Assembly: GCF_003019035.1 (NCBI RefSeq)
Contig: NZ_CP027447.1
Length of the DNA: 64,000 nucleotides
Direction: 5' to 3' (one strand)
Source of the DNA: Escherichia coli
Lineage (GTDB): Bacteria > Pseudomonadota > Gammaproteobacteria > Enterobacterales > Enterobacteriaceae
Position 1 is the first letter of the stretch, and every line of letters starts with the position of its first letter. A model generated the notes under the pieces. It saw only the letters and a list, made by a program, of their open reading frames with translations, did not search any database and was not told where the DNA came from. Of the stretch, positions 45,712-64,000 are shown piece after piece. Made by a program: the position numbers and the translations under genes.

Positions 45712-45810
45712 ATCTGTAATAAGAAATAGCCCTCGCCGCTTCCCTCTACAGGAATGGCGAAGGGCTGTCGGTTTCGACATGGTTGGCCATCATATGATGG
45801 CCTTTTTTAT
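45712..45810 (+). ncRNA. sdhX: 3'UTR-derived sRNA SdhX (RybD) with intrinsic terminator
   Basis: Sequence immediately after sucD stop ending in hairpin ggttggccatcatatgatggcc plus T-run, the known location of SdhX. Confidence 0.6.
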
Positions 45811-47204: not shown

Positions 47205-47961
47205 AACGCTGTCCTGAAATATAGACGTTAAACAACCCCCTTTATTGCGAGGGTAATTTTGTCTTTCCGGTCAGCAGCCAGCAAAAGGGAAAGAAAACGC
47301 GCGTAGTGTATGCAGCAATGACGATCAATACAAGATAAAAAAGACTATTAACAAACGGGGGTGTTATAAAAGGGGTCAGTTATCGACGCCAGATTGTAAA
47401 ATATGAAAAATGATAATTTCCAGTGGATATATTTTAAGATTTATTTTTACGCCTGTTTTTACGTCGGGTAACTATCCATTGTTGCCGTTTTTTAATTATC
47501 AAAAGTGGGATGAAAACAAATGGATTATTAATGATAATAAAACATGTCTTTATGACGAATAATGAAGATCTTATTTTAAATATCATTGTGTTATGCGCAC
47601 TGTGTGGTGTCGGAACACCTGTTGTTACGCTTATATCTGGTCGTTATTAACGCATTTCTCATATAATTAAATTACTGACATCTTGCAATCTCATCATATT
47701 CATATGTTCAAATTAGAAAATATTTTGCCAACAATATCACTTTTTCGACAAGTTAAATTAAGCATATTGAATTCGCATACAACGCGTTGGTGGTTTTGAA
47801 TTTATATTCATAGTGAATATACCACGACAAACAATATTCACTAAATGAATTAATAATACAAAATGATAAACGGGAATTATAGAAACCGTTTCTATATTCA
47901 TTCGTTCGTTTTTTCTGACCGATTACAGCGTTTAATTTTATCAAGTAACAGGAGAAGATTC
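47205..47961. promoter_or_regulatory. Long AT-rich divergent intergenic region (RtcB-like / hutU promoters)
   Basis: About 760 bp of very AT-rich DNA without ORFs >= 60 aa; only short ORFs such as 47531..47650 (39 aa, hydrophobic). Confidence 0.5.
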
Positions 47962-49659
47962 ATGAGTAAGCCTTCAGACCCGCGTATTGATACCAGCCGT
48001 GTAATCCATGCGCCACACGGTACGCAGCTGCACTGCAAAAACTGGCAGATCGAAGCTGCCTATCGGATGTTGCAGAACAACCTTGATCCCGACGTTGCCG
48101 AAAATCCACAGCATCTGGTGGTGTATGGTGGTATTGGTCGTGCGGCACGTAACTGGGAGTGTTTTGACAAAATCCTTGAATCACTGAAAAATCTGGAAGC
48201 TGATGAGTCACTGCTGGTTCAGTCCGGTAAACCCGTAGGCGTGTTTAAAACGCATACCGATGCGCCGCGCGTATTGATTGCCAACTCTAACCTGGTACCG
48301 CAATGGGCCAACTGGGATCATTTCAATGAACTGGATCGTAAAGGTCTGTTCATGTACGGCCAGATGACCGCTGGCTCGTGGATCTACATCGGTAGTCAGG
48401 GCATTGTGCAGGGAACGTTCGAAACCTTTGTTGAAGCGGGTCGTCAGCACTACAACAATTCGCTGAGTGGAAAATGGATCCTGACCGCAGGGCTAGGTGG
48501 TATGGGCGGTGCACAACCGCTGGCGGCGACTCTGGCGGGGGCGTGCTCATTAAATATCGAGTGCCAGCAAAGTAGCATCGACTTCCGTCTGCGTACCCGT
48601 TATGTCGATAAACAAGCGAAAGATCTTGATGATGCACTGGCGCTGATTAAATACCACACCGAACGCAAAGAAGCCGTTTCTATCGCGCTGCTGGGCAATG
48701 CGGCGGAAATTGTTCCTGAGCTGGTGAAACGTGCACGTCAGGGATCGATCAAGCCGGATCTGGTGACCGACCAGACCTCCGCTCACGATCTGGTCTATGG
48801 TTACCTGCCAATGGGCTGGAGCGTAGAACAATGGCGTGCTGCACAGCAGGATCCACAACAGCACGCCAGACTGCAAAAAGAAGCGGCGCAGAGTTGCGTG
48901 GCGCATGTTCAGGGGATGCTGGACTTCCAGGCGATGGGGATCCCGGTTGTCGATTATGGCAACAACATCCGCCAGGTGGCCTTCAACGAAGGTCTGCAAA
49001 ATGCCTTTGATTTCCCGGGCTTTGTTCCGGCTTATATTCGTCCAATGTTTTGTGAAGGCAAAGGTCCATTCCGTTGGGTGGCGCTGTCTGGCGACCCGGA
49101 AGATATCTATAAAACTGATGCCAAAATTAAAGAGTTGTTCCCCAATAACGTACTGACGCATCGCTGGCTGGATATGGCGCGCGAGCGCATTGCCTTCCAG
49201 GGACTTCCTTCACGTATTTGCTGGCTGGGGCTTGGTGAGCGTCACCTGGCGGGGCTGGCATTCAACGAAATGGTGCGCAACGGTGAACTAAAAGCACCGA
49301 TTGTGATTGGGCGCGATCATCTTGATACCGGTTCTGTCGCCAGCCCGAACCGCGAAACCGAAAGCATGCTTGATGGCAGTGATGCGGTTTCTGACTGGCC
49401 GTTGCTCAACGGTTTGCTCAACACTGCAGGGGGAGCAACGTGGGTATCCCTGCATCATGGCGGCGGCGTCGGGATGGGGTATTCACAACACGCCGGGATG
49501 GTTATTGTTGCCGATGGTAGCGAAGAAGCCGAAAAACGTCTGGCGCGTGTGCTGGTGAATGACTGTGCGTCCGGGGTTATGCGTCATGCGGATGCGGGTT
49601 ATGAGGCGGCAATTGAATGTGCCAAAAACTATGGTCTGAAATTACCGATGATTCGCTAA
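47962..49659 (+). CDS. hutU: Urocanate hydratase (565 aa)
   Basis: ORF 47863..49659 with start [10 protein letters not shown] preceded by GGAG; canonical urocanase sequence throughout ([53 protein letters not shown]). Confidence 0.9.
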
Positions 49660-49822: not shown

Positions 49823-51232
49823 ATGGAATCAAGCAGCCCTATCCGCAGTAAAAAGCCAGTATTAGAATCAAATACGATTAACGCCGTTCCTGAGTCTGCT
49901 CGCCACGGCTCGCCATCCAGTCAGTTTACTTTATGGCTAAGTGCTAACTTACAAATTACCGCTGTGGTGGACGGCGCGTTAGCGATTATTTTTGGCTCCG
50001 AAGCCATGTCAGCAATAATTGGTTTATTAATCGGTAATATTATTGGTGGTGCAGTAATGGCATTGCACTCGTCGCAGGGGGCAAAGCTGGGATTACCCCA
50101 GATGATCTCCAGTCGTATCCGCTTTGGCGTTAAAGGAGCGGCGCTACCGTTACTGATGGTGATTATTATGTACCTTGGATTTGCCGCGACGGGTACAGTA
50201 TTATCCGGTCAGGCGATTAACCGGATATTTGGTTTCGAATCGGCATCGACCGGAATTATTATTTTCGGCATGCTGACCGCGATGATCGCATTGGTCGGTT
50301 ATAAACTTATTCACGTCGTTGGCCGTGTTGCAGGGATATTAAGTATTCTGGGGTTTATTTACCTGGCTACTCAACTTAGCGGTCACTACGATGTGGCTGC
50401 GGCATTTGGTCAAAAGCCATTTAGTCTGTCGGTCTTTTTATTAACGATTGCTCTCTCTGCCGGATGGCAATTAACGTTTGCCCCTTACGCCTCTGATTAT
50501 TCCCGCTATTTACCCTCTGATACGCCAGCAAAATCAATCTTCTTTGCCACCTTTCTGGGAACCACGCTTGGCGCGCAATGTGCCATGACGTTTGGCGTGC
50601 TTGTTGCGGCCTGTGGTGCTAACTTCCTGAAGGATCAGGTTGGTTTTATGGGTGAGTTAGCCGGACCCACCTTCGCCATTCTGATTTATACGGTGATTGT
50701 TTGCGGCAAACTGACGGTGAACTGTTTGAATGCCTACGGTGGCTTTATGTCGATTCTGGCGACCGTCAGCGCCTTTAATAATCGCAGTCAGGTTTCACAG
50801 CGTGTTCGTGCTGCCTACGTTGTAGGGTTCGTGCTGTTGTCGATGGTCGTCGCGCTGGCGGCAAGCGCAGATTTTTTGAATAATTTCAAAAACTTCGTTC
50901 TGCTGCTGTTGACGGTATTTGTGCCGTGGAGCGCCATTAATCTCATCGACTACTACTTCATCTCACAAGGTAAAACCGATATTCCGGCACTTTATACCCC
51001 GGAAGGGCGTTATGGCGCGTATAACAAAACCGCTTTGACGTGCTATGGCGTAGGCGTGTTGGTGCAGATCCCCTTCCTGAATCAAAAACTGTATCAGGGA
51101 CCCATTTCTGTCCTGATGGATGGGGCGGATATCTCCTGGATTGTCGGCTTGTTAATTACCGCCGTTATCTATTACCCGTGGGCCAAACGCACCACCTGCG
51201 TTCCTGCTTATACGATTTATCCCGAGTCTTAA
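49823..51232 (+). CDS. NCS1-family (cytosine/purine/allantoin-type) permease, candidate urocanate/substrate importer (469 aa)
   Basis: Polytopic membrane protein; start MESSSPIRSKK preceded by GGAG at 8 nt; inside the hut-like operon. Confidence 0.7.
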   Translation: MESSSPIRSKKPVLESNTINAVPESARHGSPSSQFTLWLSANLQITAVVDGALAIIFGSEAMSAIIGLLIGNIIGGAVMALHSSQGAKLGLPQMISSRIRFGVKGAALPLLMVIIMYLGFAATGTVLSGQAINRIFGFESASTGIIIFGMLTAMIALVGYKLIHVVGRVAGILSILGFIYLATQLSGHYDVAAAFGQKPFSLSVFLLTIALSAGWQLTFAPYASDYSRYLPSDTPAKSIFFATFLGTTLGAQCAMTFGVLVAACGANFLKDQVGFMGELAGPTFAILIYTVIVCGKLTVNCLNAYGGFMSILATVSAFNNRSQVSQRVRAAYVVGFVLLSMVVALAASADFLNNFKNFVLLLLTVFVPWSAINLIDYYFISQGKTDIPALYTPEGRYGAYNKTALTCYGVGVLVQIPFLNQKLYQGPISVLMDGADISWIVGLLITAVIYYPWAKRTTCVPAYTIYPES

Positions 51233-51233
51233 T

Positions 51234-51824
51234 ATGGAACCGATGCTGATTTCTGCAATGGATAAGCCGCTGCAACCGTGGCGCAACGGCGGGGGGGTTA
51301 CCCGACAGCTGCTTGCCTGGCCCGATGATGAAAACTGGTTGTTGCGCATCAGTATGGCGAATGTCAGTCAGGATGGCCCTTTTTCAGCGTGGCCTGGCGT
51401 GGTTCGTGGCCTCGCGATCCTCGACGGGGAAGGGGTGAAGCTAACGTTTGCCGATTCGATCATCAACCTGCAACGTCACGATCCCGCCTTAATTTTCCCT
51501 GGAGAAGCTATGCCTGATTGCCAGCTGCTGGGCGGCGGGGTTCGCGATCTGAATGTTATGGCGCGGGAAGGCGATACGGGGATGTTGCGGGTGCAAAGTG
51601 CCGTTGACTGGCTTCCTCCGTCACTTGCGCAAGCGGGCCTGTTCACGCTGTGTGAAGGGGAGTGGATAAGCGGCAAGAAAAGGGTGTTTGTCGCGGCAAA
51701 TATGTTGTTATGGCTGGTTGCACCTGATGGCAGGCCCTGGCGTTTCGTACCACGGAAGAAAGTCTCCGTCGGTGAGCTGGCGGGCTGGTGGCTTTATTAT
51801 CTACGAGGGGAAAAATCCTTATGA
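51234..51824 (+). CDS. hutD: HutD-family protein (196 aa)
   Basis: Motif [12 protein letters not shown] typical of HutD/Ves family; 4-nt overlap with hutI start. Confidence 0.7.
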
Positions 51825-53032
51825 GTGCATTAACGCTCTGGCGAAATACCACGCTGGCGACGCTTTCCGCTAACGATTGGGGAGTGATTGAAAAGGGGGC
51901 ATTAATCAGCCGTGGCGACACTATTGTCTGGCTTGGCAAGGCCACGCAGATCCCTCGCGAACTGACGGCTGACATTACAGAGGAACACGACCTGCAGGGT
52001 AAGTTGCTGACACCCGGTCTGGTGGATTGCCATACGCATCTGGTGTATGGCGGCCAGCGGGCGAATGAGTTTGAGATGCGGCTGCAAGGCGTGGCTTATG
52101 AAGATATCGCCAGAGCGGGCGGCGGGATCTTATCTACCGTCAATGCTACGCGGGCGGCCAGCGAAACACAACTGTTTGAACTGGCGGCGCAGCGACTACA
52201 AAACTGGTTGCGTGAAGGCGTCAGTACGCTTGAAATCAAATCGGGTTATGGCTTAACGCTGGAAGATGAAGCGCGTTGTTTACGCGTGATCCGCCGCTTG
52301 CAGCAATCTACCGGGTTACATATTCAGTCTACGTTTCTCGGGGCGCACAGCCTGCCGCCAGAGTTTGCCGGGCGCAGTGATGATTACATTACGGCGCTTT
52401 GCGACTGGATGTGCGTGTTGCATGAACAGGGGCTGATTGATGCAGTTGATGCTTTTTGTGAAAACATCGCCTTTACTCCAGAGCAGGTACGGCGCGTTTT
52501 CAGTAAAGCGCAAAGCTATGGATTACCTGTAAAACTGCATGCCGAACAGCTTTCTGACCAGCAAGGCGCGGCGCTGGCAGCGGCGTTTTCTGCACTCTCC
52601 TGCGATCATCTGGAGTACCTGAGCGAGTCGGGGATCGCCGCCATGAAAGCGGCTGGAACAGTGGCGGTTTTGCTTCCCGGTGCTTATTACTTCCTGCGCG
52701 AAACCCATCTGCCGCCGATTGTCGCTCTGCGGGCCGCAGGTGTGCCGATTGCTATCTCCACGGACCATAATCCCGGAACGTCTCCCAATATGTCATTGCC
52801 ATTGATGATCAATATGGCCTGTACGCTGTTTCGCATGACGCCGCTGGAAGCCGTTCAGGGCGTTACGCGTAATGCGGCAAAGGCACTTGGACTTATTGAC
52901 CGGGGTGAACTTGCACCGGGATTACGGGCGGATATGGCGGTCTGGGATCTTAATCATCCACGTGAACTGGCTTACTGGTTTGGGCATCAGCCTTGCCAGG
53001 GGCTTATTGTCGGCGGAAAAAGGAGTTGGTAA
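51821..53032 (+). CDS. hutI: Imidazolonepropionase (403 aa)
   Basis: ORF 51788..53032 with start MSALTLWRN; amidohydrolase metal-binding motifs ([29 protein letters not shown]). Confidence 0.85.
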
Positions 53033-53982
53033 TGAAGCAAACATTTTTGCCGTGGAGTGGGCGTGTTGACTCGCAGGAAACCGGCATCAGCACTCGCTGG
53101 CATCAGCATGTGCAACCGTTTAGTGAACAAAGCCACGGCGATTGTACGCTGATTGGTTTTGCCGTTGATGACGGAGTGCAACGTAATGGTGGGCGAGCGG
53201 GTGCAGCAGGCGGACCGGGCGCGTTGCGCAGCATGTTGGGAAATATGCCAGTGCTCTGTGAAGGCGCTATTTTCGATATGGGCGATGTACAAAGCGAGGA
53301 CCACGCGCTGGAATCCGCACAAAACCGTCTGGCGGCTAACGTATCTACAGCCATTGCGCGCGGCAGTTTACCGGTGGTTCTGGGGGGCGGTCATGAAGTG
53401 GCGTGGGGAACATTTCAGGGGATTATGCAGTCGCGTCCGGATATTCAGCGGTTACTGATTGTGAACCTTGACGCGCATTTTGATTTACGGATGGCGGAAC
53501 AAGCCAATTCAGGTACGCCGTTTCGTCAGATGCAAGAGTGGAACGCGCAGCATGGCAAACCGTTTCATTATCGCGTGCTGGGAATAAGTCGTTTTGCCAA
53601 TACTCAGGCGTTATTTGATCGCGCTGACTGTCTCGGTGTGCGTTATTGGCTGGACGAATCTCTGCAATTTGAACGTGGTTTGCATGAGATCGCTAATGCG
53701 CTCTCGGCAGATATTCAGGCTTGTGACGCCATTTATTTAACGATTTGTCTCGATGTTTTACCAGGTTATCAGGCGCCCGGTGTTTCTGCTCCATCACCGT
53801 TAGGCGTGCCGTTAAATATTACTGAAGCCATTGTGAATTTAATCGCCGGTAGCGAGAAGTTGATTGCTGCGGATATTGCCGAACTTAACCCGGACCTGGA
53901 CCGCGATAATTTAACTGCGAAAGTTGCCGCTCGCCTGGTGACCAGTATTGTCCGGCGGGGGAAAACAGATAGAACAAATTAA
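53032..53982 (+). CDS. hutG: Formimidoylglutamase (316 aa)
   Basis: ORF 52993..53982 with start MKQTF after AAGGAG; arginase-family motifs GGGHEVAWG, NLDAHFDLR, SGTPFRQ, IYLTICLDVLP, VSAPSPLGVPL. Confidence 0.85.
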   Translation: MKQTFLPWSGRVDSQETGISTRWHQHVQPFSEQSHGDCTLIGFAVDDGVQRNGGRAGAAGGPGALRSMLGNMPVLCEGAIFDMGDVQSEDHALESAQNRLAANVSTAIARGSLPVVLGGGHEVAWGTFQGIMQSRPDIQRLLIVNLDAHFDLRMAEQANSGTPFRQMQEWNAQHGKPFHYRVLGISRFANTQALFDRADCLGVRYWLDESLQFERGLHEIANALSADIQACDAIYLTICLDVLPGYQAPGVSAPSPLGVPLNITEAIVNLIAGSEKLIAADIAELNPDLDRDNLTAKVAARLVTSIVRRGKTDRTN

Positions 53983-54032
53983 AACGTTGTCGCAGTAACC
54001 CGTTGTTAAACTCATCATGATAAGGAAACACA

Positions 54033-55703
54033 ATGAAAGGATTGATACGAAGAGTCACTGTCACCGTTGTGCTCTGGAGCGTTTGCTCCATCGCGATGGC
54101 AAAATCAACCATTACGCTGGATGGCGAACATCTCTCTATTGACCAGGCCTGGTCAATTGCATTAGGTGATAACGGCGTCAAAATCGCGTCGAACGCCATG
54201 GAGCGCATGGAAAAAAGTTATGATCTGGTGATGACTGCCGCGCATTCAGGTACGCCTGTTTATGGCTTAACCGTGGGCGTGGGGCTAAATAAAGATCAGC
54301 CCATATTTGATGCCAAAGGAAATTTAACGCCTGAGGTGATTGACGCATCGAAAAAATTTAATGCTGCCGCGCTGCGCGCCCATTCTGCGGGCGTCGGTCC
54401 GATGTTGCCGGATTATCTTGCCCGTCTCTCAATGGTGTTACGTTTAAATACTATGTTGCATGGGCAAACCGGCGCGCAGCCTTATATTGCCGAGTTGTAT
54501 GCCGAGTTTATTAATCGAGGCGTTACGCCGTTAATTCCGGCGCGGGGAAGTATCGGCGCAGCGGATATTATGCTCGCTTCACACGTTGGTCTGGTGATGA
54601 TGGGCGAGTGGAAAGCGCGGGTTAATGGCGTGGAAATGAGTGGTGGCGATGCGCTTGTGAAAGTGGGGCTTAAACCACTGGTCCCGCAGGGTAAAGATAT
54701 GCTGGCGATTTTATCGAACAACAGCGTCGGGACAGCCTACGCTATCGAAGCTGTTCGTTCGGCACGTCAGTTGCTGAATGTCAGCCCGGTGGTTTTCGCT
54801 ATGAGTCTGGAAGCGTTGAATGGTAACGTCGCACCAGTACTGCCGCAGTCAATTGCCGTGCGTCCTTTCCCGCAGTTGGCTGACTCTGCAAAAGAGATTC
54901 GCGATGCGTTAAACGGTTCATATTTATGGCATAAAGATGACGAACGTGCATTGCAAGATCCGTTATCGTTCAGAACTACGGTATATACCATTGCTGAATC
55001 AGTACGCGCTTTGCATGATGCTGAAGAGATCATAACCGTACAAATCAACAGTTCCGATGATAACCCAGCAACGGTGCTAAATGCTGACAAGGCGTATCAG
55101 GACTCCAGTCAGGTCGCGCAATATTTTGTTAAAGATGGCGCAGTCAGCGGCGGGATCTTCCCGACGGCGAACTTCGAATCGTTACCGGTTGCGCTTGCCA
55201 CTCAGCGTCTGACCGTGGCGTTGGTACATGTTTCGCATAACAGTATGCGTCGCTCGCTGCACCTGGAAGATGAGCACTTTACCGGTTTAACGCGCTTCCT
55301 GTCGGCACCCGGTAATAAAGGTCACGGCTTCGGTTCATTACATATCCCGTTTGTTGCGCTGCATGCGGAAAATGTCGATCTCGCTAACCCGGTTTCTTTC
55401 GATATTCAACCGGTAGCCGGAGGCATTGAAGATACGGGTGCCAATAACGACCACGCGGCGAGAAAATTGAAACAGGTTGTCGATAATCTGAACGTGATTT
55501 ATGGCATTGAACTGATGCATTCCGCACAGGCTCTCGATTTACGGTTGCAGGCCGATCCACAACTGGCATTAGGGAAATCCACCAAAGCAATGTTTACCGA
55601 ATACAGAAAAGTCGTGCCGTTTGTCGACCAGGATCGGGTCTTTACCCCAGATATTGCAGCTTCGCAAAAATTCTTAGAAGGATATGCTATAAATCAAAAA
55701 TAA
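54033..55703 (+). CDS. HAL/PAL-superfamily protein lacking the MIO-forming Ala-Ser-Gly triad, with predicted N-terminal signal peptide (556 aa); candidate MIO-independent lyase, not a canonical histidase
   Basis: Aligns along its length with histidine ammonia-lyase (PARGSIGAADIMLASH vs HAL GSVGASGDLAPLAH; SNNS vs NGTQ); N-terminus MKGLIRRVTVTVVLWSVCSIAMA-KS is Sec-signal-like with AxA site; AAGGAA RBS 5 nt upstream. Confidence 0.75.
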   Translation: MKGLIRRVTVTVVLWSVCSIAMAKSTITLDGEHLSIDQAWSIALGDNGVKIASNAMERMEKSYDLVMTAAHSGTPVYGLTVGVGLNKDQPIFDAKGNLTPEVIDASKKFNAAALRAHSAGVGPMLPDYLARLSMVLRLNTMLHGQTGAQPYIAELYAEFINRGVTPLIPARGSIGAADIMLASHVGLVMMGEWKARVNGVEMSGGDALVKVGLKPLVPQGKDMLAILSNNSVGTAYAIEAVRSARQLLNVSPVVFAMSLEALNGNVAPVLPQSIAVRPFPQLADSAKEIRDALNGSYLWHKDDERALQDPLSFRTTVYTIAESVRALHDAEEIITVQINSSDDNPATVLNADKAYQDSSQVAQYFVKDGAVSGGIFPTANFESLPVALATQRLTVALVHVSHNSMRRSLHLEDEHFTGLTRFLSAPGNKGHGFGSLHIPFVALHAENVDLANPVSFDIQPVAGGIEDTGANNDHAARKLKQVVDNLNVIYGIELMHSAQALDLRLQADPQLALGKSTKAMFTEYRKVVPFVDQDRVFTPDIAASQKFLEGYAINQK

Positions 55704-55826: not shown

Positions 55827-55973
55827 TGATTGAGACAATTGTCACGCCAGGCTTACCAGGTTATAAATATCGAACATGATTTTTATAAAATATTGATTGC
55901 TGCTTTGGTTGCCATTACTTAGCAATAAGTAATGGTTTTTTGATAGTTTCAACTATTTTTAAGGGAAGGCATT

Positions 55974-56879
55974 ATGCGAGGAAAAATACCTAAAACGGAA
56001 CTGCTGGTGACTTTTGAGGTCGTCGCACGTCATGAAAGTTATACCAGAGCGGCAGAGGAGTTAGCGTTAACCCAAAGTGCAGTATTCAGACAAGTAAGTG
56101 CGCTGGAGGAATTTTTACGTACTCCGTTATTTTCACACTCTAAAAAACGCATTTTTCTTAATGATGCAGGGAAGTATTACCTGGGGATAGTAAAAGAAAC
56201 ATTAAATAAGCTGGAACGCGATACCAATACCATTATGACCTGGCAGCCTACGGTTCAGGTTATTGAACTTGCCGTTAATCCTACTTTTAGTACCCACTGG
56301 TTAATCCCAAATTTACATGAATTCACAAAGTTACATCCCGATATTATTGTTAATATTCATTCTTTAGCTAATAACGGCGATTTTCTTAATCGGGAGTACG
56401 ATGCTGTCATTATGCGCGAAAATTTTTGCGCGCCCTGGGCGGAAGTAGAATATCTCTTTGATGAGGAGATTTTGCCGGTATGCAGCGGCAGTTTGCTTGC
56501 AATGTCCGATCAAAAACTGTCAGTGGCAGAACTGCTTACTGAGTTACCACTTCTGCATCAAAGCACCCGTATTACTGGCTGGGAAGAGTGGTTTGCTTTA
56601 TCTGGCGTTAGCAGTCCGCTGGTCAATAACGGACCACGTTTCGATTTGCTTTCAATGCTGATTGCCGCCGTGCGCTCTAATCTCGGCGTGGCGCTGTTAC
56701 CACGGTTCGCTATTCAACATGATTTGGATAGTGGCGATATGGTGATTCCCTGTGATGTGCCTATTCGTACCGGTAATCGTTTTATTATGACGTGGCAGGA
56801 AGAGAAGTCTGACTCGCCGCACTTGCAGCAATTTCGTGAATGGTTGCTGGCGAAATCGGTCGTACCGCAGGAGATGTAA
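55974..56879 (+). CDS. LysR-family transcriptional regulator (301 aa)
   Basis: N-terminal HTH (ESYTRAAEELALTQSAVFRQVSALEE) and LysR substrate-binding domain. Confidence 0.85.
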   Translation: MRGKIPKTELLVTFEVVARHESYTRAAEELALTQSAVFRQVSALEEFLRTPLFSHSKKRIFLNDAGKYYLGIVKETLNKLERDTNTIMTWQPTVQVIELAVNPTFSTHWLIPNLHEFTKLHPDIIVNIHSLANNGDFLNREYDAVIMRENFCAPWAEVEYLFDEEILPVCSGSLLAMSDQKLSVAELLTELPLLHQSTRITGWEEWFALSGVSSPLVNNGPRFDLLSMLIAAVRSNLGVALLPRFAIQHDLDSGDMVIPCDVPIRTGNRFIMTWQEEKSDSPHLQQFREWLLAKSVVPQEM

Positions 56880-56912: not shown

Positions 56913-57515
56913 TTACCAGTCGATACCCGGCTGCGCCTGAATGCCGTTATCAAAAGCATGTTTGACGGGGCGGATTTCGCTGACCGTATCCGCCATTTTT
57001 AATATCTGACTGTGGCAACCGCGTCCGGTGACAATGACACTTTGTTGTGCCGGGCGGTTTTGCAGAGAAGCGATCACTTCTTCGGTATCCAGATAATGGT
57101 AAGCCAGCATATAGGTCAGCTCATCAAGCACCACTAAGTCGTAACGCTTGTCAGCCAGCATCCGTTTGCTTTCCGACCAGACCTCTTTCGCCGCGTCGAT
57201 ATCCGCTTGCCGGTTCTGTGTCTCCCAGGTAAAACCGGTTCCCATAATATGAAACTCAACCCCCAGCGGCTGGAGAAGGTTGTATTCGCCGTTGTCCCAT
57301 TGCCCCTTGATGTACTGCGCAACCCCCACCGTTTTGCCATGACCCACCGCGCGCGTCACAGTACCAAACGCGGCAGTGGATTTCCCTTTGCCATTGCCGG
57401 TGAAAACAATCAAAATCCCTTTTTTCTCTATCGCCGCCGCGACGCGCGTATCGACCTGTTCCTTCAATTTCTGCTGGCGCTGCACATGCCGTTCAGTTGA
57501 AATTCGCGCTTCCAT
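56913..57515 (-). CDS. Cob(I)alamin adenosyltransferase, BtuR/CobA/CobO family (200 aa)
   Basis: P-loop IVFTGNGKGKSTAAFG and BtuR-like body (VLDELTYM, ITGRGC, ADTVSEIRPVKHAFD). Confidence 0.85.
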   Translation of the reverse strand: MEARISTERHVQRQQKLKEQVDTRVAAAIEKKGILIVFTGNGKGKSTAAFGTVTRAVGHGKTVGVAQYIKGQWDNGEYNLLQPLGVEFHIMGTGFTWETQNRQADIDAAKEVWSESKRMLADKRYDLVVLDELTYMLAYHYLDTEEVIASLQNRPAQQSVIVTGRGCHSQILKMADTVSEIRPVKHAFDNGIQAQPGIDW

Positions 57516-57524
57516 TCATTTTCC

Positions 57525-59177
57525 TTAATGTCCCGCAGGGCAACTGGCGCAGCGGTGTTGCTGCTCAAACTGACTAAAGAAATTATTGCCTTTATCATCT
57601 ACCAGGATGAATGCGGGCAGATTTTCCACTTCCATCATCCACACCGCTTCCATACCCAGCTCCGGGTATTCCAGGCAACGCAGACTTTTGACATATTCTT
57701 GCGCCAGTAACGCAGCTGCACCGCCAATACTTCCCAGATTGAAGCCGCCATGTTTGTGACAGGCATCGGTGACCTGCTGGCTGCGGTTACCTTTCGATAA
57801 CATCACCAGACTGCCGCCAGCCGCCTGGAAGGTATCGACATAACCGTCCATTCGACCGCCCGTGGTTGGACCCAGTGAACCGCAGGCCATGTTCTCCGGT
57901 GTTTTCGCCGGGCCAGCGTAATAGACAATATGATGCTTCAGGTAATCCGGCATCGGTTCGCCGCTATCCAGCCGCGCTTTTATTTTGGCGTGGGCGATAT
58001 CGCGCGCCACTACGATGGGACCACTTAACGACACGCGGGTGCCTACCGGTAATCTGGCGAGATCCTGCATCACGTCACGCAACGGACGGTTTAGATCCAG
58101 CTGTACATGTTGCGCGTGATTTTCTTCCCGCAGTGAGGCTGGAATATATTGCCCCGGATTGTGTTCGAGTTTTTCCAGCCAGATACCGTGCTTGTTAATT
58201 TTTGCTTTGATATTGCGATCCGCAGAACAGGAGAGCGCCATAGCTATCGGGCAAGAGCCACCGTGACGCGGCAGACGAATGACGCGAATATCATGAGCGA
58301 AATATTTACCCCCAAATTGCGCACCAATACCAAATTGCTGACTGGCCTCGAGCAATACTTTTTCCAGCTCAATATCACGGAATGCTTGTCCTTGCTCGTT
58401 TCCGCTGGTGGGCAAATTGTCGTAATATTTCGTTGAGGCCAGCTTGGCAACTTTTAAGGTTTGATCGGCTGAAAGCCCTCCGACGACAAAGGCGATGTGG
58501 TAAGGCGGGCAGGCAGCGGTGCCCAGCGATTTCATTTTTTCGATTAAAAATGCGGTCAGTTTTTCTGGTTGCAATAGGGATTTGGTTTCCTGATAAAGCG
58601 CGGCTTTATTGGCAGAGCCGCCCCCTTTATTAATACAGAGAAAATGGTACTCATCACCAGCGACGGCGCTGATATCAATCTGCGCCGGGAGATTGGTTTG
58701 CGTATTGACTTCGGTAAACATATCCAGTGGCGCATTTTGTGAAAAGCGCAGATTATTTTCCTGAAAAGTGGTGTAAATGCCTTTGCTTAAGGCTTCAGCG
58801 TCGTTACCTCCGGTCCATATCTGTTGCCCTTTACTGGCAACAATAGTTGCGGTGCCGGTATCCTGACAGTTGGGTAATACCCCTTTTGCTGAGACTTCAG
58901 CATTACGTAATAACTGCAACGCAACGTATTTATCATTACTACTGGCGTGCGGATCGTTAAGAATGCTGGCGACCTGTTGCAAATGAGCGGAACGTAAGAA
59001 AAAAGAGGCTTCATAAAATGCCTGCCGGGCAAGCAGCGTTAATGCTTCAGGAGCGATTTTTATCACTTCTTCGCCGTCTAATTCCGTTACTGTAATATGT
59101 TGATCGCTAATTAATGTATATTCTGTACCGTCTTTATTTTGTAGAAACGGTTCTTGCCAGATAAATGGTTTGGACAT
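57525..59177 (-). CDS. fumD: Class I fumarate hydratase paralog, candidate mesaconase (mesaconate hydratase) (550 aa)
   Basis: High similarity to FumA/FumB along full length ([51 protein letters not shown]); location in methylaspartate cluster. Confidence 0.85.
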
Positions 59178-59284
59178 ATTTCACTTTTCACCTTAAACGT
59201 TAGTTTTACTTAATTGCCGTCTAACTTCATGATCCGGCTTATAAAAATGCGTAGTCATTGGCTTCTGATTGCTTAAGATCCCCC

Positions 59285-60565
59285 TCAGGGCAGAGCAACG
59301 TTCGATTCATTGGGTTTTAATGCTTTACCCCGACAGCCCTCGCCGAAATGTTCGCCTTCCCACCGACTCACCATCGCAGCGCCCATTGCGTTGCTCATGA
59401 CGTTTGTCGCGGAACGCCCCATATCAAGGAACGGATCAACGCCCATCAGCAAGATCAGCCCCGCTTCCGGAATATTGAACTGGTTGAGCGTGGCGGCGAT
59501 AACCACCATTGAGGCGCGTGGTACGCCAGCCATTCCTTTCGAGGTCAACATCAGGATCAACAGCATGGTGATTTGCTCACCGATGGATAAATGGATATTG
59601 CAGGCCTGGGCGATGAAAACTGTGGCGAAGGAGCAGTAGGCCATTGATCCAACGAGATTAAATGAGTAGCCAATGGGTAAGACAAAGCTGGCAATTTTGG
59701 GGGAAACGCCAAATTGCTCCAGTTTTTCAAGCGTTCCCGGAAAAGCCGCTTCAGAACTGGATGTGGTAAATGCCAGCAGGGCGGGTTCCGAAAGGGCACG
59801 GGTCAGGCGTCTGATGCAGGGGCCGACATAAACGATGGCCAGACCGATAAGCAGCACCCAAAGTAACAACATGGTGAAATAAAATTCACCCATAAAGATC
59901 CCGGCGCTCACCATAACTGCCAGTCCTCGTTCAGCAATCAATGCTGAAATAGCGGCGAATACGGTCAGGGGAGCGAAGAGCATGACGTAGCCAGTGAGCT
60001 TTAACATGGCATGTGCCAGCGAATCTAAGGCGTGAACGATGGCGCTGCCTTTCTCACCAATCGCCGTCAGGCTACAGCCGAGGAAAATTGAGAACACCAC
60101 GATTTGCAAAATTTCATTGTGCGCCATGGCATCGACAATGCTGGTGGGGAAAGCATGCGAAATAAATACTTTTAGTGTAAAGGGTTCTGACGCGACCACT
60201 CCGGTGGTTTCGGCACCGTGTGCAACAAAATTAATTCCTGTGCCTGGCATGAAGAAATTTACCGTTATCAAGCCTAAGGCAATTGACAGCAATGAGGCGC
60301 AAATAAATAAAAAGAGTGTTTTAGAAAAAATACGACCAAGGGCTTTGGCATCTCCCATTTTAGCTATACCTACCACCAGGGTAGAGACCACTAACGGAGC
60401 GATAATCATTTTTATCAGTCGTAAGAAAATCGTCGTGAATATCGATATTTCTTGCGCATAGAGTTTTGCGGTTTCCGGTGAAGCAGTGTTATTGAGCACT
60501 ACGCCGATAATCATTCCAAGTACCAGCGCCAAAAGAATCATCGTGGTTAAACTTATTTTCTTCAT
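59285..60565 (-). CDS. Dicarboxylate/amino acid:cation symporter family transporter (about 426 aa)
   Basis: Polytopic membrane protein; start MKKISLTTM with GGAGG 5 nt upstream; DAACS-like fold inferred. Confidence 0.7.
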   Translation of the reverse strand: MKKISLTTMILLALVLGMIIGVVLNNTASPETAKLYAQEISIFTTIFLRLIKMIIAPLVVSTLVVGIAKMGDAKALGRIFSKTLFLFICASLLSIALGLITVNFFMPGTGINFVAHGAETTGVVASEPFTLKVFISHAFPTSIVDAMAHNEILQIVVFSIFLGCSLTAIGEKGSAIVHALDSLAHAMLKLTGYVMLFAPLTVFAAISALIAERGLAVMVSAGIFMGEFYFTMLLLWVLLIGLAIVYVGPCIRRLTRALSEPALLAFTTSSSEAAFPGTLEKLEQFGVSPKIASFVLPIGYSFNLVGSMAYCSFATVFIAQACNIHLSIGEQITMLLILMLTSKGMAGVPRASMVVIAATLNQFNIPEAGLILLMGVDPFLDMGRSATNVMSNAMGAAMVSRWEGEHFGEGCRGKALKPNESNVALP

Positions 60566-60725
60566 TTTTTCCTCCATCAGGTGCACGGCGATAAATCAGA
60601 ATCAGGAGAAGTAGATGCCTGAATAGAGATTCAGGCATCTACCTGCTATTACAACCTTACAAATAGCTGAAGTGTTGAACTGCAATAAGTGACGGGATGT
60701 CAGTTGGCTAAAAGTATTCGGATTT

Positions 60726-61043
60726 TTACAAATCGAAACTCATATTTAATAAAGGTGCATGTTGCTGTGCACCATAGACATCATTGTCACCTACATTCCC
60801 GGAGATAATATCTCGTGGCATGACGATTTTTACTGCGTTAGAAGGATCAAACCAGACAATACGGTGAATAAAGTCAGGTTCAACATGATATAAGCGCGCA
60901 ATCAGTTCTGGGGTTAATTGCCCTGATGATTTAACTCGCTCATAGTTTTCTTTCGTTTTAAATAAAATATCTAAAACCAGTTCGTAAGGTCCGGCATTTT
61001 TCGAACGAATGACTTGCGCCAGTGAGACAATTGACTGTTTCAT
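60726..61043 (-). CDS. Small conserved protein of unknown function (105 aa), tentatively DUF4387-like
   Basis: ORF translationally coupled (4-nt overlap) to upstream unknown gene; family assignment from memory, unverified. Confidence 0.6.
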   Translation of the reverse strand: MKQSIVSLAQVIRSKNAGPYELVLDILFKTKENYERVKSSGQLTPELIARLYHVEPDFIHRIVWFDPSNAVKIVMPRDIISGNVGDNDVYGAQQHAPLLNMSFDL

Positions 61044-62410
61044 GCCTGAACTCCTTCTGGCGTCACCTGTTCAATATGGAAATCAAAACGCAGAGCGTCG
61101 TTGGCTTCAATCAGGTGATATATGGAAAATTCGTATACCGGCCCGCCCTGGATATCAGAAGGGGAGAACGGGAACGCCAGATTGCCTGCGGTAGCGATGC
61201 GGTTTTCATAGCCGTAGTGCAGCATGGTAGAGCGCACCAGCGAGCAAACGCTATTGGCAATTTCCTGGGTCGGTGCAACTACATCAAGGACAATCCCCAG
61301 CTCATGCCCGGCAGTTTGCATCGGTTCATGGTCGCCCATCACCCCATTTTTGCCGTACAGGTGGAAATTGATGCGAATGCTGTCATCGTCGAGCGACAGG
61401 TTACGTGAAACGCTGGTTTTGACTTCATCGATGATTTTATCGATCCCGGCGATCATGATCGGGTCGCGCGTTCCTGCGATGGTCAGACAGCGGAAGCCCA
61501 CCCGTCGCGCACCTTCCAGTTTCAGGGCATACGGCGTTTCTTCATGCTTAGAACCGCTGACGTACACTTCGCCGTCATTGACCGCTTTAAATGTGCAGCC
61601 TTTCAGGTTCAACACGCCGCCAGGTCCAGGCAGGAAGTAGGGATCGGATTTCTCATACAGTGTGTGTGCAGCCGCTGACGTTTCGGTAAATTTACGCTTC
61701 GGATTAAATGTCTTCAGCGTAAAGCCGTTGTCATCAATGATGCCCATCGCACAGTCAGAGCCTGAGCCGGGCGTTGCGGCGATTGCCGCGCATTCAAGGA
61801 TTTTCCCACAATGCAGCGCCAGACCTTCATCAAAGCCTTGCATGATCGGTAGCGCAGCAAAGCAGGCCGGGTCGTAAGCGCGCCCGCCCAGCACCACTTG
61901 CGCGCCTTCTTTCAGCGCCTGCTGGAAGGGTTCGATGCCCATTTGCGCGACGATATACGTACTTTCGTCAATCGCGTCGTGGGTTAACGGCGGGACAAAA
62001 TCCAGCGCCGTGATTTTGCCGTTATCCAGCGCCTGGTGGACGATGGCTTTGTCAACGTCTGCCGGGATCAACGCCATCGAGAACGAGAGGTGCTCTTCCT
62101 GGGCAATCTCATGAATTATTTCTCGGCACCACTCCAGGTGTGGAGCGGCACCAGAACCGCCGGCCGTTCCGATCACCACCGGTATATTATTTTGCACGCC
62201 TGCGGTGATCATATAGCGCAGATCGCGCTTGACCCCTGCGCGATCGGTAAACGGTTTGCCCGCTCCGAGGTAGTGGGGGCCAGGATCGGAAGAGCCTGCA
62301 TCAACGGCGATCAGATCGGGCGATTCTGCCATCGCTTTGCGGAAGCTCTCTTCAGGGAATCCATACCCGAGGATTGCCGTTGGCGATAAGACTTTAAAAG
62401 AACGAGCCAT
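61040..62410 (-). CDS. Conserved protein of unknown function (456 aa), tentatively DUF1446/AtuA-like
   Basis: Long ORF with good coding signal immediately downstream of mal; no recognisable catalytic motif; family assignment tentative. Confidence 0.65.
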   Translation of the reverse strand: MARSFKVLSPTAILGYGFPEESFRKAMAESPDLIAVDAGSSDPGPHYLGAGKPFTDRAGVKRDLRYMITAGVQNNIPVVIGTAGGSGAAPHLEWCREIIHEIAQEEHLSFSMALIPADVDKAIVHQALDNGKITALDFVPPLTHDAIDESTYIVAQMGIEPFQQALKEGAQVVLGGRAYDPACFAALPIMQGFDEGLALHCGKILECAAIAATPGSGSDCAMGIIDDNGFTLKTFNPKRKFTETSAAAHTLYEKSDPYFLPGPGGVLNLKGCTFKAVNDGEVYVSGSKHEETPYALKLEGARRVGFRCLTIAGTRDPIMIAGIDKIIDEVKTSVSRNLSLDDDSIRINFHLYGKNGVMGDHEPMQTAGHELGIVLDVVAPTQEIANSVCSLVRSTMLHYGYENRIATAGNLAFPFSPSDIQGGPVYEFSIYHLIEANDALRFDFHIEQVTPEGVQA

Positions 62411-62413
62411 TTG

Positions 62414-63655
62414 TTAATCCTTAGCCTGCAACAGCGCGATAGTACGATTCATTTCGTTGAAGACGATATCGAGGCCTTCGTCAAAGCCCATCCCTGGCTT
62501 TACCAGCATACGCATAGGGCGAGCGGCAAGGGCGACGTGGACACAGGTGCGGGCACTGACATCAGTTTCATTGCAGGTGCCGCCCTGGTACGCTTCCATG
62601 CTGTGGCTGTTGCAGTAAAGAACCGCATCGACGATGTTGTGAATACTGCCCAGATCCGGGGTTTTGATTTGCACCATGTGGCAACTGGCGGCATCAGTGA
62701 AATCAACAATATCCTGGTAGGTGTTACACCATTCATCGGCCACAATTTTCACGCCGGAACCGAGGCGCGTCAGCTCTTTGGTAATCGCGGTCAGCAGGCG
62801 AATTTGATCGGGCTTGTTACCGGCATCGACCGGCCCTTCAATGTAGAGCGGCAGGCCTTGCGCTTCTTTTTCCAGGCTGGCGATGTATTGCGCACAGCGA
62901 AGCGGATCCATATCGAAGATCAGGCCGATAGTGCCGTATACATCGATGTGCAGGGTTGGGTGGTAGCGTGCGCTGGTGCGCTTGCTCAGAATACGATCCG
63001 ACAGCCAGCGGACATATTCGCGCAGTTTTTCACCTTTAAAGCCCAGTTTCTCTTCGACGTTATTAATCAGTGCATGGGGCAGCACGTCGATGCCCTTAAG
63101 GATCATCTTATCGACGGCGATATATCGATCGTCCCCGCTCTGACCAAATAATGGAATGGATTCCGCCACGCGTGGCAACTGCCATTCATCGCAAACTACT
63201 TCAGTTTTCAGACGGCCGGTTGCCAGCGCGGTAGCATCAAGCAGCGCCTGTGATAATCCGTAGCGCACGGCGGTATGTAGCAAGTTGCCGTCAATACGCA
63301 ATTTGTCGAAGAAACGGGCATTCGGCAGGAAAGCATCCACATCGCGGCCTACCAGTAATGGCTTGATATGGTCGTTGAGGAACGGAATAAAGTGCTCTGC
63401 GAGGAACAGTGGATCGCGACCACCTGCCCCGGAATACTGTACGGCAGCACAGTCACCTACGGCGACCGCGCCGTTTTCCAGAATCAACTGTACCGATACG
63501 CACTCCCCGGCCTGACGTACGGCGTTAAACCCCTGTGTTACTGGCTCCCCGGTATAAAAAAAGCCGTCGTGACCCGCTCCGTTTTTTATCGCCTGCTGGT
63601 CATCGAAATAGAATGAGGAGTAGCCAGCGGTGAACAGGGCCTGTTTTATTTTCAT
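62414..63655 (-). CDS. mal: 3-methylaspartate ammonia-lyase (413 aa)
   Basis: Enolase-superfamily MAL motifs: AGHDGF, CAAVQYSGAGGRDPLF, SGDDRY, VLPHALINNVEEKLG, ADEWCNT, MVQIKTPDLG, GGTCNET, KPGMGFDEG. Confidence 0.9.
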   Translation of the reverse strand: MKIKQALFTAGYSSFYFDDQQAIKNGAGHDGFFYTGEPVTQGFNAVRQAGECVSVQLILENGAVAVGDCAAVQYSGAGGRDPLFLAEHFIPFLNDHIKPLLVGRDVDAFLPNARFFDKLRIDGNLLHTAVRYGLSQALLDATALATGRLKTEVVCDEWQLPRVAESIPLFGQSGDDRYIAVDKMILKGIDVLPHALINNVEEKLGFKGEKLREYVRWLSDRILSKRTSARYHPTLHIDVYGTIGLIFDMDPLRCAQYIASLEKEAQGLPLYIEGPVDAGNKPDQIRLLTAITKELTRLGSGVKIVADEWCNTYQDIVDFTDAASCHMVQIKTPDLGSIHNIVDAVLYCNSHSMEAYQGGTCNETDVSARTCVHVALAARPMRMLVKPGMGFDEGLDIVFNEMNRTIALLQAKD

Positions 63656-64000
63656 TATGGTCTTCCTATTAATTTACTGTGGGATACAGCATTGATGTCA
63701 TCTACAACCATCTGGAATGTCGGTTGGCGTCCTTCAAAGCGTGCGCGTTCCGCAACGTAATCGTGGTGGAGGTCGAGAATATCTTTTGGCAATGGAACGG
63801 CTCCGGCTTCCAGTACGCGTATCGCGCCGGTGTTGTCACGGACCGGAAGAATTTTGCCCGCGTTGCAGGCGGCTGGCGCAAACGGCACATCCAGTACGCC
63901 CGCTTCAAATGCTAGCACCGTACCGCGCGCAATATCACCATTACCCAGTTCGAACACTTTATTCAGTACCGCGCGAACCTCGCTCTTAATCAGTTCAATT
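63655..64000 (-). CDS. glmE: Glutamate mutase E (large, B12-dependent) subunit, C-terminal part only; gene continues beyond window
   Basis: C-terminal sequence ...FELGNGDIARGTVLAFEAGVLDVPFAPAACNAGKILPVRDNTGAIRVLEAGAVPLP...FEGRQPTFQMVVDDINAVSHSKLIGRP resembles clostridial GlmE/MutE C-terminus; stop overlaps mal start by 1 nt. Confidence 0.8.
   Translation of the reverse strand, partial: IELIKSEVRAVLNKVFELGNGDIARGTVLAFEAGVLDVPFAPAACNAGKILPVRDNTGAIRVLEAGAVPLPKDILDLHHDYVAERARFEGRQPTFQMVVDDINAVSHSKLIGRP

Follow-up and report, generated by a model that had tools for sequence, protein, structure and literature searches.

We analysed a stretch of 64,000 nucleotides from Escherichia coli (contig NZ_CP027447.1, assembly GCF_003019035.1; hereafter the window), in which an operon for histidine utilisation (hut) ends in a gene for a relative of histidine ammonia-lyase (HAL, the product of hutH) that lacks the residues from which the 4-methylideneimidazole-5-one (MIO) group is formed. 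Sequence, fold and neighbourhood comparisons suggest, with a probability that we put at roughly 0.6, that this gene encodes a periplasmic lyase for hercynine (Nα,Nα,Nα-trimethylhistidine), which would yield urocanate and trimethylamine, the urocanate then being imported and converted to glutamate. With 100% identity, the window corresponds to the chromosome of E. coli SCU-301, isolated from the human rectum. An exported trimethylammonia-lyase feeding the Hut enzymes had been proposed in a first-pass annotation made from the letters of the window, and this hypothesis is supported by the comparisons reported here. The kind of enzyme is already known, from a structure published in 2019 and from preprints of 2025-26. 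What appears to be new is a subclade without the lysine typical of ergothionases, which we call LH[I/V] after its pocket motif, and the proposed assimilatory wiring of a periplasmic lyase, an importer and the cytoplasmic Hut pathway in the absence of HutH.

The lyase, its active site and its leader

The features of the lyase gene to which we refer are the following.

54033-55703, plus strand: lyase gene, an intact open reading frame of 556 amino acids (aa), the last of the operon
54022-54027, plus strand: Shine-Dalgarno sequence AAGGAA, 5 nt before the ATG at 54033 and overlapping an in-frame TAA (54021-54023)
54033-54101, plus strand: predicted signal peptide, residues 1-23, MKGLIRRVTVTVVLWSVCSIAMA, with signal peptidase I cleavage predicted after AMA
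54102-55703, plus strand: mature MIO-less lyase (residues 24-556 and stop), proposed to be a hercynine trimethylammonia-lyase on the basis of homology, an AlphaFold2 (AF2) model and the ratio of non-synonymous to synonymous substitution rates (dN/dS)
54555-54566, plus strand: codons of G175-A176-A177-D178, the loop that is Ala-Ser-Gly (MIO) in histidase and G-E-[GA]-D in ergothionases
55341-55346, plus strand: codons of H437-I438, aligning with Gln383-Lys384 of the Treponema denticola ergothionase

Translation of the open reading frame gives the same 556 aa as quoted in the first-pass annotation. The protein has the aromatic amino acid lyase fold (Pfam Lyase_aromatic, PF00221, residues 34-526, E 9e-124) and does align with histidase from end to end, as had been stated (NCBIfam hutH, TIGR01225, residues 27-550), yet its score of 277 bits lies below the equivalog cut-off of 539 bits, and with PRK09367 it likewise reaches 293 bits against a cut-off of 524. 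Residues 172-180 read GSIGAADIM where canonical HutH proteins (from the Comamonas locus L091 and the metagenomic locus L098) have GSVGASGDL, and a HMMER alignment with Pseudomonas putida HAL places a one-residue gap at the MIO site, in agreement with the earlier description of an Ala-Ser-Gly replaced by Ala-Ala with a one-residue deletion. Re-reading of the aligned position found no intact Ala-Ser-Gly that would speak against this description, and because GAAD offers no Ser-Gly, no MIO can be formed. The other two deviations described at first pass, SNNS for NGT and TVGVG for NTGFG, were also recovered (ILSNNSVG against LLNGTQAS in histidase, YGLTVGVG against YGINTGFG). The fold is shared with the MIO-dependent HutH proteins (template modelling (TM) score of the model 0.89 to HAL 1b8f), but the triad is absent and the equivalog cut-off failed, and by these measures the E. 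coli lyase is no histidase. In the databases its annotation varies, some records (P0003, P0004) giving a product of 535 aa from Met22; NZ_CP173554.1 calls it 'hutH: histidine ammonia-lyase', and most records list a HAL/PAL/TAL family ammonia-lyase.

The best sequence match in the Protein Data Bank (PDB) is the T. denticola ergothionase 6s7j, at 293 bits over residues 27-550, against about 170 bits for HAL, and the AF2 model (predicted local distance difference test (pLDDT) 90.9) has the same structure as its top fold match (TM score 0.94). The protein is thus closer to ergothionase than to histidase. It is 38% identical to the T. denticola enzyme, 41% to Swoo_3913, the hercynine lyase of Shewanella woodyi, and 52-61% to exported relatives that keep the ergothionase lysine (Lys-type), and a homolog search returned hundreds of exported relatives at 52-62% identity from Shewanella, Ferrimonas, Sutterella, Citrobacter, Hafnia and others. 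The first-pass annotation had named ergothionase-type trimethylammonia-lyases as the only known MIO-independent members of the superfamily; the placement of the E. coli protein among trimethylammonia-lyases stands, but the enzyme class had already been published in the preprints of 2025-26.

The E. coli lyase has Y77, K87, H117, Q308, R314, N339 and E466, none of which varies among the 71 family members aligned. Y77, H117, Q308, R314, N339 and E466 match the functional residues listed for Swoo_3913, in which Tyr takes the β-proton, His and Glu hold the imidazole nitrogens, and Gln, Arg and Asn hold the carboxylate (10.1101/2025.08.13.670108). At the catalytic Tyr and Glu positions singled out at first pass for checking we thus find Y77 and E466 conserved, with the MIO triad absent. 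Tyr54, Lys64 and Glu412 of the T. denticola ergothionase, from a four-residue set whose numbering fits the alignment, correspond to Y77, K87 and E466, and this enzyme (Maurer et al. 2019) reportedly carries out an MIO-independent 1,2-elimination of trimethylamine. The lyase gene is under purifying selection, with a dN/dS of 0.036 relative to an 85% ortholog. Because the catalytic set is invariant and dN/dS is this low, the E. coli lyase looks like an active enzyme, albeit one that should not accept ergothioneine.

The expectation regarding ergothioneine comes from the substrate pocket. In the Treponema enzyme, the ergothioneine thiolate is bound by Lys384, without which there is no ergothionase activity (10.1101/2025.08.13.670108; 10.64898/2026.04.22.720169). 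In three independent alignments this position falls on Ile438 of the E. coli lyase, and Gln383 on His437; Swoo_3913 also has an uncharged residue there, Asn439. Position 176 is Glu in all 70 of the Lys-type relatives compared, Leu in Swoo_3913 and Ala in E. coli, the loop Glu thus being lost in both the E. coli lyase and the validated hercynine lyase. In a neighbour-joining tree Swoo_3913 branches deeply, and the E. coli lyase falls within the Lys-type lyases, in a distinct LH[I/V] clade. The clade has its own pocket signature (E412, S435, H437, I/V438, I/V458); its members are the proteins of E. coli and E. marmotae, two Gram-negative orthologs from metagenomes and a group of cytoplasmic Enterococcus enzymes.

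The first-pass annotation had described a Sec-like N-terminal extension with a good ribosome-binding site, and both parts of this description fit the comparison across species. The in-frame TAA ends 9 nt upstream of ATG 54033, which is the first possible start, and the position of its Shine-Dalgarno sequence is kept in the orthologs L006 (85% identity; GAGGAA) and L005 (67%; GGGAG), whereas no comparable Shine-Dalgarno sequence, and none at a workable distance, precedes the internal Met22. The leader has a net charge of +3 (three basic residues), a hydrophobic core with a mean Kyte-Doolittle value of 2.27 and then A-x-A (A-M-A), so that the junction reads MKGLIRRVTVTVVLWSVCSIAMA followed directly by KS, the mature part beginning at Lys24. 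In comparison with the 85% ortholog, the leader is kept in frame with synonymous changes, although it evolves faster (dN/dS 0.36) than the mature part (0.036). By a heuristic of our own, a signal-like, sequence-divergent extension is found at the same site in 105 of 121 sequences (the query and its 120 best homologs), and the nine homologs truly without an extension start right at the conserved start, those with a named source being from the Gram-positive genus Enterococcus. In the AF2 model, residues 2-21 form a lone detached helix with a pLDDT of about 64. The characterised Shewanella relatives carry leader peptides as well and are reported to be periplasmic (10.1101/2025.08.13.670108; 10.64898/2026.04.22.720169). 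Taken together, the n-h-c heuristics, the Shine-Dalgarno site and the cross-species conservation all support the prediction of Sec export for the lyase. A start only at Met22 (MAKSTITL), raised at first pass as an objection, is disfavoured relative to ATG1 by the lack of a usable Shine-Dalgarno sequence, and the 535-aa database starts are considered a misannotation. Export by the Tat system was considered for the R6-R7 pair and judged unlikely, the 85% ortholog having Q-G at these positions and the core being strongly hydrophobic.

Substrate, operon and proposed pathway

The lyase gene closes an operon of six genes that run in the same direction and follow each other closely or overlap, in the order hutU, NCS1 permease, hutD, hutI, hutG and lyase. 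Upstream of the lyase it contains the following genes.

47962-49659, plus strand: hutU, urocanate hydratase of the canonical type (TIGR01228, 934 bits, cut-off 375; start as in PGAP)
49823-51232, plus strand: NCS1-family permease, HutT-like (Pfam Transp_cyt_pur / NCS1), proposed urocanate importer
51234-51824, plus strand: hutD, HutD/Ves family protein (NCBIfam scan and annotation)
51821-53032, plus strand: hutI, imidazolonepropionase (TIGR01224, 454 bits, cut-off 298)
53032-53982, plus strand: hutG, formimidoylglutamase (TIGR01227, 291 bits, cut-off 229)

The operon is of the four-step enteric Hut type, with hutU, hutI and hutG above their equivalog cut-offs. The gene content given at first pass (hutU, hutI, hutG, an NCS1 permease and hutD, with neither a canonical hutH nor hutC) was recovered in full by NCBIfam hits, tblastn and profile scans. 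In the 64-kb window tblastn found no second Lyase_aromatic or hutH gene, and in the island there is no GntR/HutC gene or other recognisable regulator gene.

HutU bears on the product of the lyase. It passes the urocanase model and fails the models for hydratases of modified urocanates, with 670 bits against a cut-off of 930 for thiourocanate hydratase and 670-672 bits against 880 for S-methyl-thiourocanate hydratase, for which reason urocanate would be the expected product. Together with the replacement of Lys384 by Ile438, the failure of the thiourocanate hydratase model favours hercynine over ergothioneine as the likely substrate. Of the two substrates suggested at first pass, hercynine is thus retained and ergothioneine disfavoured. 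Furthermore, a scan of the locus found no flavoprotein reductase, thiourocanate hydratase or desulfhydrase near the E. coli lyase.

For a comparison across species, the 80 best of 290 relatives were used, with one genome per species, and the Hut proteins of E. coli and the urocanate reductase of S. woodyi served as queries against the flanks of these 80 loci. Lys-type lyases (motif I/V-Q-K) adjoin Fcc-like flavoproteins with about 30% identity to the urocanate reductase UrdA, a flavoprotein type that Bertsova et al. assign to thiourocanate reductases. In an independent Lys-less clade from Sutterellaceae, Parasutterella and Turicimonas (the TED clade), the neighbours are urocanate reductases that resemble UrdA, with about 50% identity. 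The E. coli lyase shares its operon with a canonical hutU, i.e. it is also coupled to a urocanate consumer, in this case a hydratase and not an UrdA reductase, and among the 80 loci only the E. coli type has hutU-NCS1-hutD-hutI-hutG beside the lyase. Two apparent exceptions to the relation between Lys and reductase type are accounted for by the presence of two lyase paralogs in each of these loci (L024, L032). The loss of Lys thus goes with plain-urocanate neighbours on at least three independent branches. Besides the HutU scores and the loop Glu lost in both the E. coli lyase and Swoo_3913, this association is the third line of evidence that points to hercynine giving urocanate.

The TED clade consists of exported MIO-less lyases with the motif G-A-T-E-D and the loop G-D-A-D (loci L067, L068, L070, L073-L076, L078, L080, L081 and L085-L087), and its hosts include Sutterellaceae, Turicimonas and Parasutterella excrementihominis. 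A 2026 preprint reports that P. excrementihominis converts histidine to imidazole propionate and calls a gene adjacent to urdA 'hutH'. As we found no further lyase homolog within 18 kb in the Parasutterella locus L073, either a true hutH lies elsewhere or the assignment of 'hutH' in the preprint needs checking. Within the LH[I/V] clade, the closest leaderless relatives are from Enterococcus spp. (L002-L004, L013-L015; 60% identity, motif S-L-H-V), where a conserved cluster comprises a σ54 activator, a fused CoA-transferase, an MFS transporter, the lyase and an NMO-type FMN reductase and looks like a cytoplasmic reductive route for an enoate product. The 67% ortholog L005 (Logan SRR17714370, lyase at 10001-11659) has a signal peptide and the motif S-L-H-V; its neighbours resemble hydroxyproline catabolism genes (DHDPS-like, aldehyde dehydrogenase, proline racemase-like, D-amino acid oxidase-like), and no hut genes were found nearby.

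Orthologs of the NCS1 permease with 60-83% identity occur in Comamonadaceae, Rhizobium and Nocardia, and the closest ones examined (67-83%) all lie inside hut clusters. The gene order is hutC-hutH-hutC'-NCS1-hutU-hutD-hutI in Comamonas (L091), hutU-NCS1-hutH-hutD-hutI with a true GASGD HutH in the metagenomic locus L098, and hutU-NCS1-hutI-IclR-hutG-hutD without a lyase of any kind in the metagenomic locus L096, while the metagenomic locus L099 has hutC and then hutU-NCS1-hutD, the HutD gene following the permease there too. In L006, an 85% permease ortholog lies directly upstream of the 85% lyase ortholog. In this context the permease would import urocanate; its closest orthologs in ordinary hut clusters support the earlier suggestion that it takes up the product of the lyase. 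P. aeruginosa HutTu (PA5099) is a dedicated urocanate transporter encoded in the hut region (PMC12977541). The E. coli operon resembles the Pseudomonas hut clusters in having its own permease beside hutU and hutD, with growth on external urocanate reported there, but hutH, hutC and a permease for histidine, none of which is part of the E. coli operon, are found in the Pseudomonas clusters too, and the E. coli permease is likened to PA5099 by its context.

In the pathway that we propose, hercynine would cross the outer membrane and the exported lyase would eliminate trimethylamine from it in the periplasm, leaving trans-urocanate. Tyr77 would abstract the β-proton, with His117 and Glu466 holding the imidazole and Gln308, Arg314 and Asn339 the carboxylate, and the MIO would not be needed because trimethylamine is a good leaving group. 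After its departure, the co-operonic NCS1 permease would bring the urocanate in, and HutU, HutI and HutG would convert it to glutamate and formamide. An exported lyase encoded at the 3′ end of the operon would thus take the place of the cytoplasmic HutH, so that the Hut pathway would serve a histidine betaine and free urocanate instead of histidine.

The closest known system is that of S. woodyi, where Swoo_3913 is a periplasmic hercynine trimethylammonia-lyase supplying urocanate to a periplasmic urocanate reductase (Bertsova et al., 10.1101/2025.08.13.670108). The reaction that defines the Swoo_3913 type is the Mg2+-dependent conversion of hercynine to trans-urocanate and trimethylamine, the Asn variant Swoo_3913 being specific for hercynine, and the urocanate of S. 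woodyi is said not to be imported (10.1101/2025.08.13.670108). The E. coli lyase shares with Swoo_3913 the MIO-less Lyase_aromatic fold, an N-terminal leader, the conserved Tyr and the imidazole- and carboxylate-binding residues, a neutral residue in place of Lys384, a non-acidic one in place of the loop Glu, and the coupling to a urocanate consumer. However, with only 41% identity and a separate branch in the tree it is not an ortholog of Swoo_3913, the pocket reads S-L-H-I in place of T-L-Q-N, and the periplasmic respiratory reductase of S. woodyi is replaced in E. coli by a permease and the cytoplasmic HutU, HutI and HutG, i.e. an assimilatory route. The same exported family includes two S. 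oneidensis enzymes, the periplasmic ergothionase SO_3057 and the Nπ-methyl-hercynine lyase SO_3299 (Bertsova et al., 10.64898/2026.04.22.720169). Lys-type Shewanella relatives in our set, which are probably of the SO_3057 type, are 52-57% identical to the query. SO_3057 keeps Lys and makes thiourocanate, whereas the E. coli lyase lacks this Lys; in SO_3299 replacement of the Lys retunes the choice of substrate. Both S. oneidensis lyases are coupled to flavocytochrome c reductases and have no hut linkage, unlike the E. coli lyase in its hut operon. For characterised relatives kcat/Km is around 10^6 M-1 s-1. The T. denticola ergothionase (PDB 6s7j/6s7q), the best match of the E. coli lyase in sequence and fold, is cytoplasmic and acts on ergothioneine, with Lys384 and the loop Glu but no leader, whereas the E. 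coli protein has a leader, Ile438 and Ala176. Finally, HutH (P. putida 1B8F, Comamonas L091, L098) shares with the E. coli lyase the fold and the residues that bind a side chain of the histidine type and the carboxylate, and it supplies urocanate in related clusters with orthologous hutU and NCS1 genes, but it carries the Ala-Ser-Gly MIO triad, is cytoplasmic, deaminates histidine and is only 27-29% identical to the E. coli lyase.

Weighing the alternatives

Several points weigh against a hercynine lyase. Substrate, localisation and direction of transport have been inferred from the comparison of sequences, and the signal peptide is predicted from heuristics and conservation. The pocket, with S-L-H-I, E412 and I458, differs from the T-L-Q-N of the sole validated hercynine lyase, and the two proteins belong to separate clades. 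SO_3299, in which Lys is replaced by Gln, rejects hercynine and takes Nπ-methyl-hercynine (10.64898/2026.04.22.720169), so that the loss of Lys alone is no predictor of hercynine as substrate. Other LH[I/V] members, in the Enterococcus clusters and in one Gram-negative hydroxyproline-type cluster, have no hut linkage, and Glu176, nearly invariant in the family, is Ala in the E. coli lyase. Furthermore, the exclusion of a canonical hutH elsewhere covers the window (tblastn) and one blastn probe.

These points bear most directly on the possibility that the lyase acts on another histidine betaine (Nπ-methyl-hercynine, S-methyl-ergothioneine or an undescribed one), with the hut linkage reflecting a near-urocanate product or the use of free urocanate, which we regard as possible but rather unlikely. 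It would fit the behaviour of SO_3299, a Lys-less enzyme that requires Nπ-methyl-hercynine (10.64898/2026.04.22.720169), the pocket signature peculiar to the LH[I/V] clade with members outside hut contexts, and the L096 cluster, whose hutU, NCS1, hutI and hutG without hutH or lyase indicate that the operon could work as a urocanate module alone. Yet HutU, HutI and HutG pass canonical models and HutU fails those for modified urocanates, the island holds no dedicated downstream enzyme for a methylated or thiolated product, and the imidazole-binding His117 and Glu466 are unchanged. With similarly modest expectation, the LH[I/V] subclade as a whole may, like SO_3299, recognise a histidine-derived betaine other than hercynine and ergothioneine, and the reversed charge of its pocket (Lys to Ile/Val, Ser412 to Glu, Gln to His) would then mark a new natural substrate. 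A periplasmic ergothionase making thiourocanate is improbable, even though the best solved relative is an ergothionase (6s7j), the nearest neighbours outside the clade are exported Lys-type lyases including the SO_3057 type, and the lyase gene is just such a homolog as a 2026 review finds not to be annotated in E. coli. Indeed, the thiolate-binding Lys is an Ile, and replacing this Lys reportedly abolishes activity (10.64898/2026.04.22.720169); Swoo_3913, with Asn at this position, turns over ergothioneine at only 0.05 s-1 (10.1101/2025.08.13.670108). No thiourocanate hydratase, desulfhydrase or Fcc-type reductase lies nearby. The lyase gene could on this account be the one behind the 'ergothionase from E. 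coli' that Wolff is said to have described in 1962; E. coli W, probably Wolff's strain, is without the island at the sucD locus, which speaks against such a link.

A pseudoenzyme without activity, or a periplasmic protein that binds ligands resembling histidine, was named at first pass as the alternative and would fit the loss of the MIO, of the Lys and of the near-invariant loop Glu176. However, the catalytic base and the substrate-binding residues of characterised lyases are all invariant, dN/dS is 0.036, and Swoo_3913 is highly active, although it too lacks the Lys and the loop Glu (10.1101/2025.08.13.670108); we therefore see very little room for this explanation. Just as little speaks for a cytoplasmic enzyme starting at Met22, with the leader an annotation artefact and the substrate in need of an importer of its own: the 535-aa product in P0003 and P0004, and the fact that the cytoplasmic homologs of Enterococcus and Treponema begin at the position of Met22, are set against the strong, ortholog-conserved Shine-Dalgarno sequence at ATG1 with none usable at Met22, against a leader that is in frame, hydrophobic and A-x-A-ended across divergent Gram-negatives and absent only in Gram-positives, and against the leader peptides of characterised relatives. 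Most unlikely of all is an MIO-independent lyase acting on free periplasmic histidine. The E. coli lyase does fill the functional slot of HutH in the operon, and in Parasutterella (L073) an exported MIO-less lyase lies beside urdA in an organism reported to convert histidine to imidazole propionate, although a true hutH may be present elsewhere in that genome. But ammonia is a poor leaving group without MIO (10.1101/2025.08.13.670108; 10.64898/2026.04.22.720169), Swoo_3913 did not deaminate L- or D-histidine (10.1101/2025.08.13.670108), and the related MIO-deficient lyases all reportedly need the trimethylammonium group (10.64898/2026.04.22.720169).

Setting, distribution and significance

Outside the six genes, two further features of the operon were recorded.

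47205-47961, no strand: AT-rich region (32.5% GC, 757 bp) between an rtcB-family gene and hutU, presumed promoter or regulatory region
55911-55942, plus strand: terminator-like hairpin, an 11-bp stem followed by a T run, between the lyase and a LysR gene, a consensus match only

A scan of the whole window at the Rfam gathering thresholds gave no match and hence no known riboswitch or leader RNA upstream of hutU, and the counts from a promoter and terminator scan were not above those of shuffled sequences, the hairpin at 55911 alone being noteworthy. The LysR gene (55974-56879) was rejected as a regulator of the operon, since it persists in strains lacking the hut genes; there it stays with the cobO / fumarate hydratase / methylaspartate cluster and is therefore a gene of the neighbouring island. 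This cluster (56913-64000, minus strand), which belongs to the methylaspartate pathway of glutamate fermentation, adjoins the glutamate-producing Hut operon and contains cobO, a class I fumarate hydratase, a GltP/DctA-like symporter, DUF4387, an AtuA-like gene, a methylaspartate ammonia-lyase (544 bits) and the end of methylaspartate mutase E. Judging by gene content, the two clusters together could carry the breakdown of hercynine or urocanate as far as mesaconate and further. On the other side, between sucD and the hut operon, lies the RtcB-family gene (45807-47204, minus strand), which scores below all equivalog cut-offs.

The lyase gene is present in 144 of 5426 complete E. coli genomes (~2.7%), IAI39 included, where it is intact, chromosomal and single-copy, and it is present in E. 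marmotae too. Two allele classes can be distinguished, with 14 genomes at >=99% nucleotide identity to the window and 130 at 90-95%, a wider split than core genes of E. coli normally show, which hints that the polymorphism is old or that alleles were imported from elsewhere in Escherichia. The DNA following sucD is hypervariable, and different gene sets are found at this recombination hot spot: mngR-mngA-mngB occupies the sucD site in K-12, W and an O102:H6 strain and is absent from SCU-301, and the O102:H6 strain has different island boundaries. In O157:H7 PA20 (L007), the segment 45853-55565 of the window is missing and the last 138 nt of the lyase gene (55566-55703) are left beside the LysR gene, a deletion scar suggesting that the hut-lyase module had once been there and was then lost; two further strains share the 43% coverage pattern of PA20. 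The methylaspartate-cluster side is found in about 1128 genomes as against the 144 with hut. With 50.2%, the GC content of the island is like that of the genome and uninformative on recent horizontal transfer. A blastn probe with a plasmid-type hutH matched only plasmids of 11 other complete E. coli genomes. In these 11 genomes, large plasmids, of which the one examined, pABWA45_1 (L095), is an IncF plasmid, carry a complete canonical hut cluster (hutF, hutD, ABC transporter, hutH, hutU), and this plasmid cluster, also found on many Klebsiella and Enterobacter plasmids, is a separate route to histidine utilisation in E. coli. An E. albertii-type lyase bearing the Lys had no megablast match in any complete E. 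coli genome.

Neither of the preprints by Bertsova et al. mentions hut genes, the permease or E. coli homologs, and full-text literature searches found no description of the E. coli hut island or of a urocanate phenotype. To a specialist familiar with the work of 2025-26 the mechanism is no longer surprising, but the E. coli pathway itself is undescribed. On a practical matter, the name hutH or the start at Met22 given in some records could lead homology-based pathway surveys to misassign the lyase.

If the hercynine reading is true, it explains why a hut operon lacks hutH in a species commonly regarded as incapable of using histidine, and an exported trimethylammonia-lyase would here serve assimilation for the first time, the published ones feeding periplasmic respiratory reductases. 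It would also provide a specificity code for the family, the residue at the Lys384 position tracking the neighbouring product-consuming enzyme across the 80 loci. Trimethylamine is a precursor of trimethylamine N-oxide, and about 2.7% of complete E. coli genomes could release it from dietary or fungal hercynine. Should the LH[I/V] lyases instead act on a new betaine, they would represent a new trimethylamine-generating route in gut Enterobacteria and enterococci.

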